35,931 nucleotides of DNA from an uncultured Candidatus Peribacteria bacterium (GTDB lineage: Bacteria > Patescibacteriota > Gracilibacteria > BD1-5 > UBA2023), in the NCBI GenBank assembly GCA_964598195.1, contig CAZRBF010000001.1, forward strand, positions 5,696 to 41,626. Direction: 5' to 3'. Position numbers and translations under genes: made by a program. Positions 29,572 to 35,931 of this stretch are shown piece after piece. Every line of letters begins with the position of its first letter. Within the stretch, counting starts at the first letter, position 1. The notes under the pieces are model-generated. The model worked only from the letters and a program-made list of their open reading frames with translations. It had not been told where the DNA came from and ran no database searches.

Positions 29572-30843
29572 CTACTTAATTATCTCTCCTGTATATACTG
29601 CTTCAAACGCACTGCCAGGAACCTTCTTCAGTTGGTTGAGATTATCGTCGTTCCACCTCGTGTCGGATGCTCCGGTTATGAACCAATTGGATCCATTGTC
29701 AGCGACGATGAGTCCGTATTTTTTGAGTGCTTCGAGAATAGCCCGAGCTTCCCCTGTGTACTTTGAAGTGTCAAAATCGGCCTTCAGTCGAAGTTTGAGA
29801 CCCATAGGAAGAGCATTCGGATCTTTTATACTTGAGGCATAGTGTGTGGCTGGGTGGATAAACCCGCGTTGTGTTTTGGAGAATGTGACACGTAAGGCAT
29901 GACGAATCTCATTCTTACTCGCTTCATCGTATCGAGCAAGTCCTGGGAATATAGGCAGTCAGGCTGCATCGGCGGAAGTCCAGTAATCTGGGCGCAGAGC
30001 ATTGGAGCGCAGATCGTATTTTGCAGCAGAACTCGCGTCCCAACCAGTCTGAGTTTTGTGTGCATTATAGAGCTCATACAACATACATGCATTCTGATCC
30101 ACGACGATAACATGTCGATCACCATCGCTCGAGTTTCCTCACTCTACAGGGGCATTATCAGGAATAGGATATGGTCCCGGATCACTTTCGTCACCGTAGT
30201 CAGTAAAATTAATGGGCACTTTTTTCTGATCTTTTCCGACGGTTACAAAGGGTATTCCGTATTCTCCATTTCCTCAGAAATCAGCATGCAGAAATTGGTT
30301 TCCAGAAAGATTTTTGATATATGTCATGTAATTTGCCGAGTTTGGATGAACCTTGAGTCCCGAGATATCCTGATTCCAGCTATTATCCGCTGGAAAAATA
30401 GAGCAACTTCCGACTGCTGGATGAGTTGGAGTTGGTGCGGGAGGCATTGCTGGTGTTGGAGTTGGTTGTGTTGGTACTGGAGGTACTGGAACTGGTACTG
30501 GAGTTGGTTGCACTGGAGGAACTACAGCCCCCGTTCTCCCGAGCTCACTCCCGATAAGATCATCCATTTCTCCGATAGACGGATCCTTGAGCCTCTCGAT
30601 AACCGCATCAATTATCGCGAGAATTGTAGCATTTCATGTATATTTTTTCTTGAGCTTCGTGAGCGCTCGTATGTACTTTTCACGGTACGACTCTCACTTT
30701 ACATGGATCGCTCATTCTATTTTAGTTGTTATGCGCTCAACAACAGTACTTGTGTTTACTTCTTGCGCCGAGATACTTCAGGCGAGTGAGAGTAAGACAC
30801 ACCCAGCCACCAGATACTTTATATACGTTCGAGAAAGGATCAT
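29572..30843 (-). CDS. secreted conserved hypothetical protein with Pro/Thr-rich linker
   Basis: Fragments 29572..29805(-) and 30274..30567(-), the stretch between them and the upstream part to ATG 30841-30843 are one frame (translated by hand) joined by TGA codons. Signal peptide YLVAGCVLLSLAGSISAQ. Linker PPVQPTPVPVPVPPVPTQPTPTPAMPPAPTPT. Globular domain with DESDPGPYPIP, DGDRHVIVVD, WTSADAA(G)LPIFPGLARYDE, PMGLKLRLKADFD, ADNGSNWFITG. TAG stop. Confidence 0.7.
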
Positions 30844-30994: not shown

Positions 30995-32353
30995 ATGAAA
31001 TTCTATAACAGAAAACAAGAACTTGAGATACTCCAAAAAATAACCAATTCATCCCGTTCGGAGCTTGTATATTTTCTAGGGAGGCGACGCATTGGTAAGA
31101 CGAGTCTTATGAATCATTTTTTTACGAGCAAGAATCAAAAATACTTGTATTTTTTTGTGTCTAACAAAAAAGAATGAAACCTTTTGCAGAGTTTTTCCGA
31201 AACTCTCAAAGAATATCTAGGTTATGACATACACTTCCATTCCATCAGAGAATTTCTCAAATTTTTATTTGAGTATGGAAAAGAGCATCCTTGACTTTGT
31301 GTCGTATTTGACGAGTTTCAAAATTTCACGTATGTTGATGAAAGTATTTTTGATGATTTTCAAGAATTTTGGGATAAATATAAAGAAGGGGCCAATATAA
31401 AACTCTTCGTGATCGGATCACTCTTTACTCTTATGGAGGATATCTTTCAGAGTAAAAAATCTCCACTTTTCGGCAGAGCAACTGCAAAAATTGACGTGCA
31501 AGAATTTGAAGTCGTGACACTTAAAAATATCCTTAGTGACTATGATATGTTTTCGAGTAGGAATCTGCTCGATATATATACACTGTTTGGTGGAGTTCCA
31601 AAGTATTTAGAAGTATTGGACACTATTAAACCCTGAGAGAACCTCTTACTCGAAACCATTCTGAGTGAAGTGTATCTTACGGAAAATTCTATGTTCCTGA
31701 GAGAATGATCCGATCTTCTGCTGACCGAATTTGGAAAAACATCCAGTGTGTATTTTTCCATACTGGAAGCTATTGCCAATGGATACAATAAGAGATCAGA
31801 GATTGCCGATTATACGAAAATGAACTATGATTCCCTTGGACTCTATCTTGAGAATCTTGAAAAAGTATATCATTATATTGAGAAACTTACCCCTATTATC
31901 GCACAAAAAACAACCCTCAATAGATATAAAATCCAAGATAATTTTCTCATTTTTTGGTTTCGATATATCTATAAAAACAGCAATCTTCTCGAGATTAAGA
32001 AATATACAACCCTCAAAGATCATATTCTGGCCGATATAACCAGTCTCCAGTGATTTGCCTTTGAAAAACTCGTGAAAGATCTTCTGATTACTCAAAATAT
32101 CACAAATAGATATATCATAGATTTTGAGAGTATTGGAAATTACTGGGATAAGAGTGGGAATGAGATAGATCTTATTTGTCTGAATTCGCGCACCAAAGAG
32201 GTAGTTTTTGTAGAGTGCAAGCTCAGTGGTACGAAGATTACTGGAGCAGTAAAACAGTCACTTATTGCAAAATCAGAGAATATTCCTGAGCTCAAAGATT
32301 ATAAAAAGTATTACCAGTACTATAGTTTGGATAATCTGGAGGAGTTGTTTTAG
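30995..32353 (+). CDS. ATP-binding protein, Arch_ATPase/DUF234-type AAA ATPase
   Basis: Fragments 30995..31177, 31409..31636, 31748..32053 and 32072..32353 are one frame joined by TGA codons. N-terminus FYNRKQELEILQK...LGRRRIGKTSL (Walker A), Walker B VVFDEFQ. A winged-helix-like middle region (SVYFSILEAIANGYNKRSEIA) and a C-terminal DUF234-like nuclease-fold tail (GNEIDLICLNSRTKEVVFVECK). TAG stop. Confidence 0.75.
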
Positions 32354-32357
32354 TAAT

Positions 32358-32439
32358 AAATAATTGGATATTTGAGGGGATTTGTGGTAGGATGAGGGAA
32401 GATTAAATAGTATTCGAAATACTTTATAAAAATAACATC
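32358..32439 (+). promoter_or_regulatory. conserved upstream element, copy 1 (43-nt G-box repeat plus -10-like box) in front of paralog F
   Basis: aaataattggatatttgaggggatttgtggtaggatgagggaa (32358-32400) is identical to 34412-34454. It is followed by aaatactttataaaaataacatc and ATG 32440. Confidence 0.55.
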
Positions 32440-33723
32440 ATGTCAAAAGCCAGAAATATCTCCAGGCAACAAGCCTCAAAATCCATCATACTTCCATCAG
32501 AAATCCAAAAAGTTGTGGATGAAAGGGGGTTTTATTTGTATGAGTGGGTGAGTTTTGTTGATTTTTTTCGCTCAATAGGAAAATATTTTGTAGTTGCGGT
32601 TGAAAAAAATTGGGGAGTATTTCTTTTTTTCACATTTCTTATAATACCACTTACTTTTTACTCTTGGTTATTTTTAAAAAATAATCTTATTTTTCAATAT
32701 ATATTGGCGATAGTTCTCTTGGGAATTATTTTATCTATCTTAAAATCTTCTCTGTTATTCTCTCTTAAATATGCCAAAAGTATTCAAGTTATTTTTTTAA
32801 AAAATTCAATTATTTTTAATAAAAAATTGTCCGATTATAAATCTCCAAATAAAGAAATAGTCGTATTATGAAGTATCTTTTTTAAACCTCTTTTAGAAGT
32901 TCAGACACAAGATATTGATAACTATCAGTCTTTTATGTGGACATTGGAGGATAAAAGTAAATGAGATATCGGTGCAGCAGGGCTTATATATATGGTGATA
33001 ATAATATTTTGAGTAACACTTTCACATCGTTGGACTGCTGGTTCTTTTATGGATTTATATCTTCCGCTTACTATCTTTGTTGTCCCTATTTGTGCAGTAA
33101 TGATTTATGTATTTTTTTTAAAACAATTTGAGTACTTGATGCAAATATTCATTTATATATTTTTTTTCATACCATTAGCTATATTCAGTTTCCTTATTAA
33201 TTTTCTTTTCTTTTCCATAATTAAGCTCATCACCTTCTTTACTCACTACACCGAAAACAGCATCAACTCACTATTTTCCTCCATCGAAAAATCTTCCAAT
33301 ATCCTCCAGTGTCAGAAGCAGAAACTTCTTGATTCATTGGAAAATGGAACTGGATTTTATGATTTTCAGAAAGTTTTTTCGCTTCTTTCTCGCTCTGCAG
33401 ACTCGAGCATAATCAATTCTCATAAACTTGAGAAACTACTCAAGGACTCTAAATTCCATGATATCTTTGATTTCGAAATCTACCACTCGTGGATTCGTAA
33501 GCAAGTCCGTGAACCATTGGAACAGATCTTGAATCTTATGGAAGATAACCTTCAGATTCTGAAAGAAACAAAAGAGAAACTCGTAAATCAGATTACTGAA
33601 ACGATTGATCAGAATCTTCGTGCTCCACTCGAGCTTCAGCTGGTAAGAATGGATGAGCAAATAGGGGGATTTGAGAGAAATAGACCTATTCTGAGAGAAT
33701 ATTTCGAGAAATTGAAAAATTAA
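32440..33723 (+). CDS. array paralog F: multi-TM membrane protein (427 aa), long form
   Basis: Fragments 32440..32871 and 33049..33723 share a frame and are joined by three TGA codons. N-terminal motif PSEIQKVVDERGFYLYEWVSFVDFFRS. C-terminal module IFDFEIYHSWIRKQVREPLEQILNL...RAPLELQLVRMDEQIGGFE. TAA stop. Confidence 0.7.
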
Positions 33724-34043
33724 CTTTTCAGTAACCTTTTTAATTCTGGTAAAGAATATTTGATACTACTCCACACAATTTCCTCGTCTATTCAGGCATA
33801 GTCATGTGAAATTCGATTCCTAAATCCAGACATCTCATTAAAGGGGATATTTTTGTAGTCCTGAGAAGTAAGAGATCGGATTTTGAGTCCGCATTCTCAG
33901 ATGTGTTGCAATTGCATACAGCATGCATCAAAAGTTTTCTCATCGTCGTAAAATGCTCATAAATCCATACCTTCAACGTAGCGCTCTATTTTATCGATGG
34001 CATTAAGGATCTCGTACTCGTAATATTGGATATTTTTTTCCAT
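33720..34043 (-). CDS. hepT: HepT-like (DUF86) RNase toxin of an MNT/HepT toxin-antitoxin pair
   Basis: Hand translation gives MEKNIQYYEYEILNAIDKIERYVEGMDL(G)AFYDDEKTFDACCMQLQHI(G)ECGLKI...FRNRISHDYA(G)ID. The RxxxH motif (RNRISH) is present. TAA at 33720-33722 overlaps the stop of paralog F by 3 nt. Confidence 0.8.
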
Positions 34044-34044
34044 G

Positions 34045-34353
34045 TTAAAAAATCGTTATAAGATCTTTTTCTATGTATTCCTTCAAATAAGGATTTATTT
34101 TTCTTTTTGTTACAAAATCCACTTTTTTTACCTTGCATTCTTTCACGAGTATTTCCTGTAAATCTTCAAGAGTCCCAAGGGTAACTCTATTGTCTTTCGA
34201 GAGCTCTATAAGAAGGTCAAGATCGCTATTTTTTGTTGCTTCATCTCGAGCATACGATCAGAATAACGATAAGTGACTAATCCCAGAAGTAAGAAAACGA
34301 TTTTTAATCTTTTCTGATGAAAGTGTTTCTTTTATAGTTTGAGACTGGGTCAT
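34045..34353 (-). CDS. mntA: MNT-type nucleotidyltransferase antitoxin
   Basis: ATG at 34351-34353 (minus). ISHLSLF(G)SYARDEATKNSDLDLLIEL is the GS-x10-DxD minimal nucleotidyltransferase motif. TAA at 34045-34047 lies 1 nt before the hepT ATG. Confidence 0.8.
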
Positions 34354-34411
34354 ATTTTGCATAGTTACTGGTAATTGGTCGTAAGTATACGGATTTTCGA
34401 TATATTTCCAA

Positions 34412-34492
34412 AAATAATTGGATATTTGAGGGGATTTGTGGTAGGATGAGGGAAAAATGAATACCATACAAAATACTTTGTAAAATAATTTT
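34412..34492 (+). promoter_or_regulatory. conserved upstream element, copy 2 (43-nt G-box repeat plus extended -10) in front of paralog G
   Basis: 34412-34454 is identical to 32358-32400. TGTAAAAT (extended -10) at 34479-34486 ends 7 nt before ATG 34493. The same region is also upstream of the divergent mntA. Confidence 0.55.
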
Positions 34493-35860
34493 ATGTCTTA
34501 TTCTCTTCAGAATCTCCCATTGGAACTTCAACAGACTCTTAATTCACGGGGTTTTTGCTTTTATAGCTGGATCAGCTATAAAGAATTTTGGCTTTCTATT
34601 CAGAGATTTTTTCTCTCAAAAATGAAGACAATTGTTCGAATTCACTTACTTGTTGGTGTTATTCTTCTCTTTGGATTTTTTATCCTGCCGTTCTTGTCTC
34701 TACAAACAAATGATGAAAAATACTGATTTTTTGTGAGTCAGATATTTCCGATGGCTGTGATGTCTATATATATACTTTTCATCGTGTACATCGCTCTATT
34801 GCATACAAGAAAATATTTAGAGTCCGCCTATATCGTATTTACCAAAGAGTATATTATAGGATTTGGATGAACAACTTCTTATGCAGACTCGTCTCTAATT
34901 TACTGAAAAATTAGGGAATTATGAAAATTTTTCGAGGAACCACTTTTTGGAGAATCGAGACTTCATATTGATAAAAAAGAGCTCAAAAGTCTCTTGTATG
35001 ATGATTTGCGAAGATATTTCTTTTTTCGATCATGGCATAATGTAGATATGAATTGGGAACGAATATTTTCTTACTTTGTTATCTGGGCCACAGTATTCGG
35101 TGTATTTATACCATTTAATTCACCATTCAAAGCATTTATCTGGTCTATCTTTGGGCTCATTATGATCGGCATATTTGCTCACTCTCAAAAAGAGAGACGA
35201 GAATATCAGAAAAATATGGATAAAGATTATCTCCTTCTCATGAATATTATTGGAATTTTTGCTATGGTATTTTCTATTATTGTTTATATGATAGGAAGTA
35301 TCATAGTCTTTGCGATCAGTGGATTTTTTCTTCTTTTTGCTCAAATCATACTCCGTATTACGAAAGCTCGTGAGATGTATATACATCAAGCTTTTCGATC
35401 TATTGAGGATGCTTCATGGAGATTACGAAATTTACAAGATGAAGCTTGTGAATATTTATTCCAAGTATCCAAGAGTCATTTTTCTGATCGAGCTCTCTCA
35501 AAGATTGAAAAAACTCTGAAAAGTATATCCAGAGAAGCCGATATTTGTGTATGCAAAAGTACCCAATTGAGAAAATATTTTCATTCACAAGGGTATGATA
35601 ATATTTTCGATTTTCACACCTACGATCGTTGGCTTCGTACAGAAATGCTTCCACCAATCCAGGATATTTGCTTGATTTTGCAAAAGCAATATAATCTTCT
35701 CGAAACAAGCATATTATCCATTTCTGGGCAGATCACTGAAAGCTTGGATACTTTTCGACCAGCTCTGCAGTTGCAAGAACAGCGTCTTATGAAACAGAAA
35801 ACATTACTTTGAGAAAATATTGTAATTTTGGAGGGGTATATGAGGGAACTGGAGGGATAA
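34493..35860 (+). CDS. array paralog G: multi-TM membrane protein (455 aa), long form
   Basis: Fragments 34493..34726 and 34994..35812 share a frame and are joined by TGA codons. The standard-code end TGA 35810-35812 is read through to TAA 35858-35860. N-terminal motif PLELQQTLNSRGFCFYSWISYKEFWLS. C-terminal module IFDFHTYDRWLRTEMLPPIQDICL...RPALQLQEQRLMKQ. Confidence 0.7.
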
Positions 35861-35931
35861 TTGATTTTTAACAAATGAGACTTCATGAGCATATTGAGAA
35901 TTTGAATCAATTGAAAAATACTTTGTAAAAT
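35824..35931 (+). promoter_or_regulatory. degenerate third copy of the upstream element at the window edge
   Basis: aattttggaggggtatatgagggaactggagggataa has G-boxes related to the 43-nt repeat and here forms the 3' end of paralog G. aaaaatactttgtaaaat at 35914-35931 is identical to the -10 box of copy 2. The window ends where the next ATG would be expected. Confidence 0.4.

Follow-up and report, generated by a model that had tools for sequence, protein, structure and literature searches.

In the vsp/vlp surface-protein loci of Mycoplasma, tandem multigene families that evolve in concert carry conserved promoter/leader blocks at their 5' ends, and STAB-SD or polypurine stabilisers of mRNA 5' ends occur in Bacillus. 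The Gracilibacteria are uncultivated, episymbiont-like bacteria that use TGA as a glycine codon and, to our knowledge, almost nothing has been described of their transcription and translation signals. In this study, we report the characterisation of a 43-nucleotide (nt) repeated element, named here the G-box, from a 35,931-nt stretch of a Candidatus Gracilibacteria metagenome-assembled genome (the window; G000:C1:5696-41626, where G000 is the source genome and the contig ends at the right edge). The element lies upstream of two long paralogous genes, F (32440..33723, + strand) and G (34493..35860, + strand), and comparison with related genomes gives good support to the view that it is a genus-specific, non-coding element marking the 5' end of each cassette in a tandem gene array.

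The source assembly comprises 1.23 Mb in 143 contigs and is 83% complete. Translation of the window gave broken-up open reading frames (ORFs) under genetic code table 11 and long ones under table 25, in which TGA is read as Gly and which is the accepted code for Candidatus Gracilibacteria (PMC9297842). An initial annotation, made from the sequence alone, had evidently assumed table 25 as well, and the ORFs are sensible under that table alone. The relatives used for comparison were the congener CAVVTN01 (G001), the genomes G005, G006 and G008 of the same genus, and the metagenome contig Ga0247832_1036551 (L076); B-type and F-type are our names for the gene types of the array.

The 43-mer, AAATAATTGGATATTTGAGGGGATTTGTGGTAGGATGAGGGAA, was found exactly twice in the window, at 32358..32400 (copy 1) and 34412..34454 (copy 2), both on the + strand, and had no match in 100 shuffles. 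Neither a pattern search allowing up to 3 mismatches nor blastn-short found it anywhere else in the assembly. When a 48-nt weight matrix was run over the whole assembly, the true copies scored 69-76 bits, no other site reached 12 bits, and the reversed matrix gave no match. The exact matching, the shuffles and the assembly-wide searches all bear out the perfect two-copy repeat of the initial annotation. Its top strand contains 16 G, 14 A, 13 T and no C, with a direct sub-repeat, TGAGGGRA, present twice at a distance of 20 nt. Copy 1, which is homologous to eight copies in relatives, starts 4 nt after the stop codon of a DUF234 ATPase gene. The identical copy 2 is separated by 58 nt from the start codon of MNT, which is divergent, and its location corresponds by synteny to that of the G-boxes in L076, G008 and G001 (copy a).

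From the 43-mer on to the ATGs of F and G, the two loci are 89% identical over 74 nt without gaps. In the stretch separating the G-box from the ATG, the two loci agree in 27 of 39 aligned columns, and the flanks 5' of the two G-boxes are unrelated (11/40). The number of differences is 0/43 inside the element against 12/39 after it (Fisher p = 4.7e-5); the perfect block is real, sharp-edged and outside any larger duplication. With just two copies, both in the array, and with 5' flanks matching at 11/40, the 43-mer has turned out to be family-specific, neither a dispersed repeat nor part of a larger segmental duplication. It is also unlike the dispersed repeats of the REP (repetitive extragenic palindromic) or MITE (miniature inverted-repeat transposable element) kind, having only these two copies in the array and no dyad symmetry.

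Ten G-box copies are known: two in G000, four in a syntenic array of G001 (for example AAATAAGTGGATATTTAAGGGGATTTATGGTAAGGTGAGGGAA), one each in G006 and G008, a truncated one in G005 and one on L076. A degenerate consensus search detected the element in 4 of 11 genomes of the genus and in none of 78 genomes from 23 other genera of the same family, and its reversed-pattern control gave 0 matches; the truncated G005 copy was recovered by a matrix scan and the L076 copy by a metagenome scan. There were 0 matches in viral contigs, and a phage or mobile origin of the G-box was rejected on this result.

All ten G-boxes have the orientation of the genes downstream of them. In the six intact B-type cassettes (four in G001, one each in G008 and L076), the G-box ends 25-32 nt before the B ATG, the distance being 25-27 nt in five of the six. 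The B-type proteins of these cassettes are approximately 235-260 amino acids (aa) long and end in ...RLHEHIENLNKISNTL*. In G001, two of the B genes have an F-type gene (395 and 404 aa) behind them, set off by the 9-nt spacer TAAAATATT, and the C-terminal halves of the encoded proteins closely match F. The start of the G-box lies at or just after the stop codons of genes of four kinds, namely F-type (G001 copy b), yidD (G001 copy d), B-like (G005) and the DUF234 ATPase (G000). The order of the locus in the relatives is a TelA-like gene, B-like genes, an E-type gene, yidD, the G-box cassettes and an AAA ATPase, and the cassette content at the same site differs in every genome compared. An ancestral cassette consisting of a G-box, a leader of 25-32 nt, a B-type gene (~250 aa), a 9-nt spacer and an optional F-type gene (~400-450 aa) is well supported by these arrangements. 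The G-box of the cassette is a real but fairly ordinary regulatory or recombination landmark.

Mean pairwise identities were calculated for regions of the six intact cassettes (15 pairs), unrelated sequences giving 0.44-0.47. Identity was 0.53 in the 40 nt upstream of the G-box, 0.86 over its positions 1-33 and 0.83 over all 43 positions, followed by 0.65 in the leader, 0.54 both in the first 300 nt and in the middle of B, and 0.78 in the last 183 nt of B. No other part of the cassette is as well conserved as the G-box, and the coding bodies have diverged to background level. When G000 was compared with L076, the MNT genes were ~95% identical and the 700 nt upstream 89% identical, G-box positions 1-33 agreed at 33/33, and identity was at background from position 34 on. 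The breakpoint of homology with L076 is inside the element, at position 33/34, and the probability of 33/33 given flanks of 89% is 0.89^33, or ~0.02 (binomial p).

Within genomes, the two G000 copies have 0/43 differences and copies a and c of G001 are identical over a 36-nt core, and the B tails of G001 are 92-99% alike. The MNT-adjacent copies at orthologous positions (G000, G008 and G001 copy a) differ from one another at 5-6 positions. A genome's own copies thus resemble each other more closely than do those at orthologous positions, which is a pattern of concerted evolution. The complete identity of the two G000 copies would then result from purifying selection together with short-tract gene conversion, and conversion would be confined to the G-box as the sole block similar enough to pair, the flanks being too diverged. 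The same block of at least 33-43 nt would also form the upstream homology boundary for exchange, duplication and loss of cassettes.

The DNA between each G000 G-box and the gene that follows it was aligned with the intact B-to-F junctions of G001, and the alignment gives good support to a deletion of the B gene in front of both F and G, with a stub and the spacer remaining. The intact junction reads ...CTG AAT AAA ATA AGT AAT ACT TTA TAA + TAAAATATT + ATG TCA, and was used for the alignment in the form ...CTGAATAAAATAAGTAATACTTTATAA + TAAAATATT + ATGTCA. Copy 1 of G000 reads TTA AAT AGT ATT CGA AAT ACT TTA TAA + AAATAACATC + ATG TCA, and copy 2 reads ATG AAT ACC ATA CAA AAT ACT TTG TAA + AATAATTTT + ATG TCT. 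The stub at 32403..32429 (+ strand) corresponds to the last 8 codons and stop of B (LNSIRNTL*) and holds a -10-like TATAAA 9 nt before the F ATG; it is followed by a 10-nt spacer (32430..32439, + strand), kept from the ancestral operon. The stub at 34457..34483 (+ strand; MNTIQNTL*) is followed by a 9-nt spacer (34484..34492, + strand), and its stop TAA together with the next AAT forms TAAAAT 6 nt before the G ATG. The deletion junction is placed ~8 nt past the G-box, where TTAAAT and CTGAAT form a short stretch of similarity. The repeat noticed in the initial annotation is thus a G-box plus a B stub, the last codons and the spacer having been left in place when B was deleted.

A third B fossil, at 35860..35928 (+ strand), was identified by alignment and by an independent protein search. 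It comprises the last 22 codons and stop (IDF*QMRLHEHIENLNQLKNTL*) with one in-frame stop, and reads ATT GAT TTT TAA CAA ATG AGA CTT CAT GAG CAT ATT GAG AAT TTG AAT CAA TTG AAA AAT ACT TTG TAA, beginning on the last base of the stop codon of G and ending 3 nt before the contig end. Compared with the G001 B gene, 26 of its first 33 nt agree, and in the protein search it showed 64% identity to B residues 225-249, with one TAA in frame. Here the G-box has been deleted too, the junction lying at ATTG(G)AT. An F-type gene should start 9-10 nt after the stop of this third stub, beyond the end of the contig, by analogy with the other junctions, and the G000 assembly lacks the AAA ATPase with which the array ends in G001, G006 and G008.

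B deletions were also seen in G006 (G-box + GTTTAGATGAA + AGTACTTTATAA) and in G005 (G-box positions 1-30 + AATTACCAATACTTTGTAA). Since these differ from the deletions in G000, at least four independent B losses have taken place within the genus, each with a recognisable scar. A TATAAT-like box is present in the B stub 6-9 nt before the F-type ATG (TATAAT in G001, TATAAA and TAAAAT in G000). Its position suggests that the stub has been retained for the start signals of the next gene, and may explain why all three G000 deletions spared it.

Taken overall, the cassette-marking G-box is best explained, if tentatively, as a promoter/operator region that has been kept uniform through selection and gene conversion; we infer, with moderate confidence, a weak or factor-dependent promoter with an overlapping operator. 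In general form this agrees with the initial annotation, which had suggested a function such as a regulatory leader, a protein-binding site or a recombination site. TTGGAT, an 18-nt spacer ending in TGg, and TAnnnT would be the promoter skeleton of the cassette. The candidate skeleton occupies 32364..32393 (+ strand) in copy 1, with TTGGAT at 32364-32369 and TAGGAT at 32388-32393, and 34418..34447 (+ strand) in copy 2, with TTGGAT at 34418-34423 and TAGGAT at 34442-34447. A -35-like and a -10-like hexamer are present at a spacing within 16-18 nt, the latter with T, A and T at its first, second and sixth positions. These three bases (T31, A32 and T36) are invariant in all ten copies, the positions between them (33-35) being GGA, AGG, AGA, AAA or GAG, and TG precedes the second hexamer in 8/10 copies. 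The aberrant copies of G005 and L076 keep everything up to TAnnnT (TAAAAT, TAGAGT) and diverge only after it.

Position also fits a promoter. In the G000 genome, TTGnnn-N16-18-TAnnnT sites peak 51-70 nt before ATGs, with 62-63 sites per 10-nt bin against ~16, and the -35 of the G-box starts 62-69 nt before the B ATG. The MNT gene is the divergent upstream neighbour in four copies, so the B promoter must lie within ~130 nt, of which the G-box is a third. Transcription would start near the 3' end of the G-box and give the short leader lacking a Shine-Dalgarno (SD) sequence that is typical of the genome. The promoter is probably weak or factor-dependent, because the G-box departs from the usual promoter of the genome.

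Several observations weigh against a promoter. The genome's own promoter profile scores the G-box site at -2.1 bits, a value at the 9th percentile among sites of the positional peak and at the 51st among matches that arise by chance within coding DNA, so that in sequence quality it falls short of the other promoters of the organism; a generic sigma-70 scan did not call the site. The G-box has G where the promoters of the genome have A or T, its 18-nt spacer is of a disfavoured length, and four copies carry GTGGAT in place of TTGGAT (position 7 = G). The spacer is conserved as strongly as the hexamers, which a plain promoter does not need, and the absence of C from one strand, for which genome composition gives a probability of roughly 1e-4, is a trait seen more often in strand-specific (RNA) signals. 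A better-looking site, TTGnGA-N15/16-TATAAT, overlaps the MNT start codon in G008 and G001 copy a, and could place the G-box in a long 5' untranslated region. Finally, the ten copies all come from one genus, and part of their conservation may reflect shared ancestry and conversion.

In a search for an alternative sigma factor with an approximate RpoD query, one full RpoD only (C64/C110) was found in G000, together with a match on C24 with only a region-4-like helix-turn-helix. The latter (G000:C24 ~800-1830, - strand) is a 343-aa protein with an N-terminal sigma-70 region-4-like helix-turn-helix (…ITRERVRQIEDVGIKKIG…) and a long C-terminal domain. Short of being a full sigma factor, it is a possible DNA-binding regulator. 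A leaderless promoter in the 26-nt B leader was also considered and rejected on account of a geometry that is inconsistent among the copies.

The main rival of a promoter is a role at the RNA level, in which the G-box would belong to the cassette mRNA as an unstructured stretch rich in G, A and U and free of C, either in the leader or between cistrons. Binding of a protein, a small RNA or the ribosome to this stretch would control the translation or stability of the B(-F) message. We consider this possible, although distinctly less probable than not. In its favour, nine of the ten copies have 0 C in 43 nt (G001 copy d has one), the C-free run extends through the leader, variable positions are mostly purine-for-purine, and the distance to the B start is nearly fixed (25-27 nt in 5/6 cassettes). 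Four copies begin at, or no more than 4 nt from, the stop of a co-directional gene, so that read-through transcripts would include the element, and the site overlapping the MNT start in G008 and G001 copy a is a plausible upstream promoter. The central RAGGGGAU could also pair with the 16S rRNA tail AUCUCCUU, but the best duplex between the element and the tail used for this test (...CUAUCUCCUUA, with UCUCC in place of the canonical CCUCC) has an energy of -11.1 kcal/mol, which is in the top 5.4% of random 43-mers, and the genome makes no use of SD sequences. No SD enrichment was seen upstream of 817 long ORFs, with G falling to ~10% in the 20 nt before starts. The boxes of the element, likened to SD sequences in the initial annotation, have no such meaning in a genome with no SD signal and an altered anti-SD, and an SD or STAB-SD role was rejected on these grounds and on the ordinary duplex energy.

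Further points stand against a role as RNA. Rfam 15 (E <= 1) gave a sole match, a chance miRNA elsewhere in the region, and none to the element. The six leaders folded with z-scores from -1.64 to +1.39 and into differing structures, there being no G-C pairs within an element that has no C, and a structured cis-regulatory RNA was rejected for want of an Rfam match and a significant fold. CsrA and Hfq were not found by tblastn with approximate queries against the 83%-complete genome (all E > 1), and CsrA-type GGA sites were dropped as a candidate on this result. The 3' box of the element is lost in L076, yet the B gene is intact there. A G-quadruplex was rejected as well, the G-runs being lost in G006, G008 and G001 copy d (TAGTAAGAT, GTAAGATAAGGG). 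The 3' end of the 16S rRNA in G000 (G000:C104; L070 ~1480-1500, - strand) reads ...GGACUAUCUCCUUA.

It is unlikely, in our judgement, that the G-box has no function of its own and is a leftover block of homology in a young, fast-recombining array, its copies alike through gene conversion and recent ancestry alone. The restriction to a single genus, the 92-99% likeness of the G001 B tails and the greater likeness of same-genome copies would all be accounted for in this way, as would the persistence of a G-box in G005, where nothing obvious lies downstream. However, the G005 copy, with no gene after it, is truncated, as expected of decay once function is lost, and conversion itself requires a block that is already conserved. 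A functionless remnant also fits poorly with an element more conserved than any coding part of the cassette, next to B coding DNA at background level, with 33/33 matches against flanks of 89% in L076, and with a fixed orientation and a fixed distance to the B start.

Still harder to sustain is a G-box whose primary role is that of a recombination site at the edge of the cassette. Insertion, excision or swapping of B/F cassettes would then take place there, through a dedicated recombinase or through RecA working on a block of the minimal efficient length. Homology with L076 does stop inside the element (position 33/34), the content of the site differs between all genomes compared, the lone, cassette-free G-box of G006 is what recombination between direct repeats would leave behind, and in G000 two perfect 43-nt direct repeats flank a 2,054-bp unit, F-HepT-MNT. 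Against this, the element has no dyad symmetry, and a C-free strand cannot carry the inverted arms of typical recombinase core sites; inverted arms like those of att, attC, dif or sfx were looked for, and only direct sub-repeats were present. No recombinase gene was found among the window ORFs scanned with Pfam, nor in the loci of the relatives, which were read as translations only. The element is absent from viral contigs, and the deletion junctions vary from case to case and look microhomology-mediated. A broader proposal, which we also regard as doubtful, is that the G-box is the crossover point of a cassette-shuffling system, a promoter-bearing block of ~33-43 nt at which B/F cassettes and the resident MNT/HepT pair are swapped, duplicated and excised within and between strains. 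If this were true, Gracilibacteria would diversify TelA-associated envelope proteins by recombination with no dedicated recombinase.

The 'degenerate third copy' of the initial annotation (35824..35860, + strand) is not a G-box but the true C-terminal codons of G (ILEGYMRELEG*), with a best ungapped matrix score of -9 bits and 27/48 identical positions. The tail of G, ...ENIVILEGYMRELEG, was aligned by BLASTP with the end of F, ...RNRPILREYFEKLKN (ILREYFEKLKN*), and resembles the F-type tails of G001 (PILIEYLEKLHK; ...ENKPILIEYLEKLHK). Its weak resemblance to the G-box (27/48) falls in the top 0.2% of random windows. It is most improbable that the 43-mer is itself the fossil 3' end of a lost upstream paralog, read in the frame NNWIFEGICGRMRED*, as the same annotation had proposed: the likeness to the G tail and a stop at the same place in that frame in 7/8 full copies speak for it, but the element precedes intact B genes and immediately follows the genuine stops of four kinds of gene, there is no conserved start or frame, 8/9 substitutions fall on the first or second base of a codon and none is synonymous, and the G tail is explained by protein homology with F-type tails. 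The true fossil tail is the 27 nt after the 43-mer, derived from the deleted B-type gene; codon alignment with intact relatives was obtained for 32403-32429, 34457-34483 and 35860-35928, and not for the 43-mer. A micro-ORF in the element (R-TG GTA ..., with RAGGGG as SD) was discarded, as there is no start codon in G006 and G008, copy d of G001 stops after 3 codons and the frames are inconsistent. The upstream ORF MDFWRISKNKWIFEG... of G008 was discarded too, its ATG not being kept (ACG in G000, ACA in G001 copy a).

Gene F encodes, under table 25, a 427-aa F-type multi-pass membrane protein with a helical C-terminal domain, comparable to the 395- and 404-aa genes of G001, and gene G encodes a divergent F-type paralog of 455 aa; the two proteins are 26% identical. 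The homologs of F-type proteins are all nameless hypothetical proteins with no Pfam domains. On the - strand between F and G lie a HepT toxin gene (33720..34043; Pfam HepT-like, E = 2e-24) and an MNT antitoxin gene (34045..34353; 102 aa, Pfam NTP_transf_2). The longest MNT ORF (140 aa, start 34467) has an extension, 34354-34467 on the - strand, that crosses the G-box on the opposite strand. This longer ORF was dismissed as an artefact of ORF calling, since the 102-aa orthologs in G008 and L076, which start MTQSQTI, put the true start at the ATG at 34353. A promoter scan detected a promoter-like site for MNT, TTGGAA-16-TATACT (34384..34411, - strand), which abuts G-box copy 2 and whose sequence is kept in G008, G001 copy a and L076. 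The MNT/HepT pair is an old resident of the locus, because it adjoins a G-box in five genomes (G000, G001, G005, G008 and L076).

The ATPase_2/DUF234 gene (30995..32353, + strand) is a candidate defence gene (PADLOC PDC-S27, E = 6e-61), and between yidD and the first G-box there is also a - strand gene of 423 aa with no Pfam match (29572-30843). In G001 and G006, yidD is directly followed by a G-box. The two genes look like an inserted accessory block, seen only in G000 between yidD and the first G-box, because they are absent from that position in G001 and G006. The initial annotation had proposed that both the ATPase and the MNT/HepT pair were inserted into a formerly tandem array; the yidD-to-G-box order in G001 and G006 agrees with this for the ATPase, while MNT/HepT, shared with G001, G005, G008 and L076, is not a recent arrival. 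Just 5' of G-box copy 1 (window 32331-32357), the sequence at the end of the DUF234 gene is TTGGAT-N18-TAGTAA. MAFFT aligned the closing codons of this gene, DNLEELF*, with a G001 F-type tail, EYLEKLE*; this likeness may be chance, or a trace of the end of an F-type gene that preceded the element before the insertion.

Other repeats and modules were seen in the relatives. G001 carries a 42-nt GC-rich palindromic repeat, TTTAATCCCCTCTCCCTCTGGGAGAGGGTTGGGGTGAGGACT (L028 5767-5808 and 12895-12936), the copies of which are 93% alike and lie inside the AAA-ATPase ORF and an extended yidD-like ORF, reading in frame ...PLSQRERG / PLPEGEG.... The ATPase of G008 has an insert similar to this repeat, and the insert in G001 also encloses a DUF559-like endonuclease segment. 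Possibly the palindrome is a small mobile element able to sit within coding DNA. In G005 and G006, a conserved pair of 97-aa genes with the look of a RelE/ParE-type toxin-antitoxin system (L030 6064-6660, L059 1334-1930) lies just upstream of the B-like genes, and is a second addiction module associated with the array.

The result is modest but useful, and it overturns no current ideas. The G-box offers a concrete cis-element, conserved and open to tests of promoter or operator activity, and its study has provided a first organism-specific picture of start signals, in which SD sequences are unused, the anti-SD is altered and TTGnnn-N16-17-TAnnnT promoters lie 50-70 nt before starts. The locus is a clear example of fast turnover in a TelA-linked array of membrane-protein genes. 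It also holds a warning for annotation, as the 'promoter-like' bases before F and G belong to a gene stub and the long MNT ORF over the element is spurious.

Compared with known systems, the array resembles the tandem families of the Mycoplasma vsp/vlp type, in which the short non-coding block before each paralog far exceeds the coding bodies in conservation, a genome's own copies are closer than orthologous ones, and the number and content of cassettes shift fast between strains. Unlike those families, it has no inverted repeats, homopolymer tract or invertase, so that phase variation is not suggested, and it consists of multi-pass membrane proteins of unassigned function beside a TelA-like gene, with the element confined to one genus of Gracilibacteria. 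Extended -10 (TGn-TAnnnT) sigma-70 promoters share with the G-box the TG one base before TAnnnT, the invariant T, A and final T, a TTG-type -35 18 nt upstream, and a distance to the start codon that matches the genome-wide promoter peak. The G-box differs from them in its poor fit to the G000 promoter profile (9th percentile), in its G-rich, strongly conserved spacer, and in a start site that is predicted from sequence. Like the STAB-SD elements of Bacillus, it has SD-like polypurine boxes too far upstream of the start for ribosome binding, but G000 has an altered anti-SD (UCUCC) and no SD usage, and the 16S pairing energy is unexceptional. The remnants of B resemble pseudogene stubs left by microhomology-mediated deletion, as codon-for-codon alignment with B 3' ends extends over the 27 nt that follow each G-box and the 69 nt that follow G, and the junctions fall at the short similarities TTAAAT/CTGAAT and ATTG(G)AT. 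They differ from such stubs in that all three in G000 stand directly before an F-type start (presumed for the third) and have kept the last codons and the spacer.

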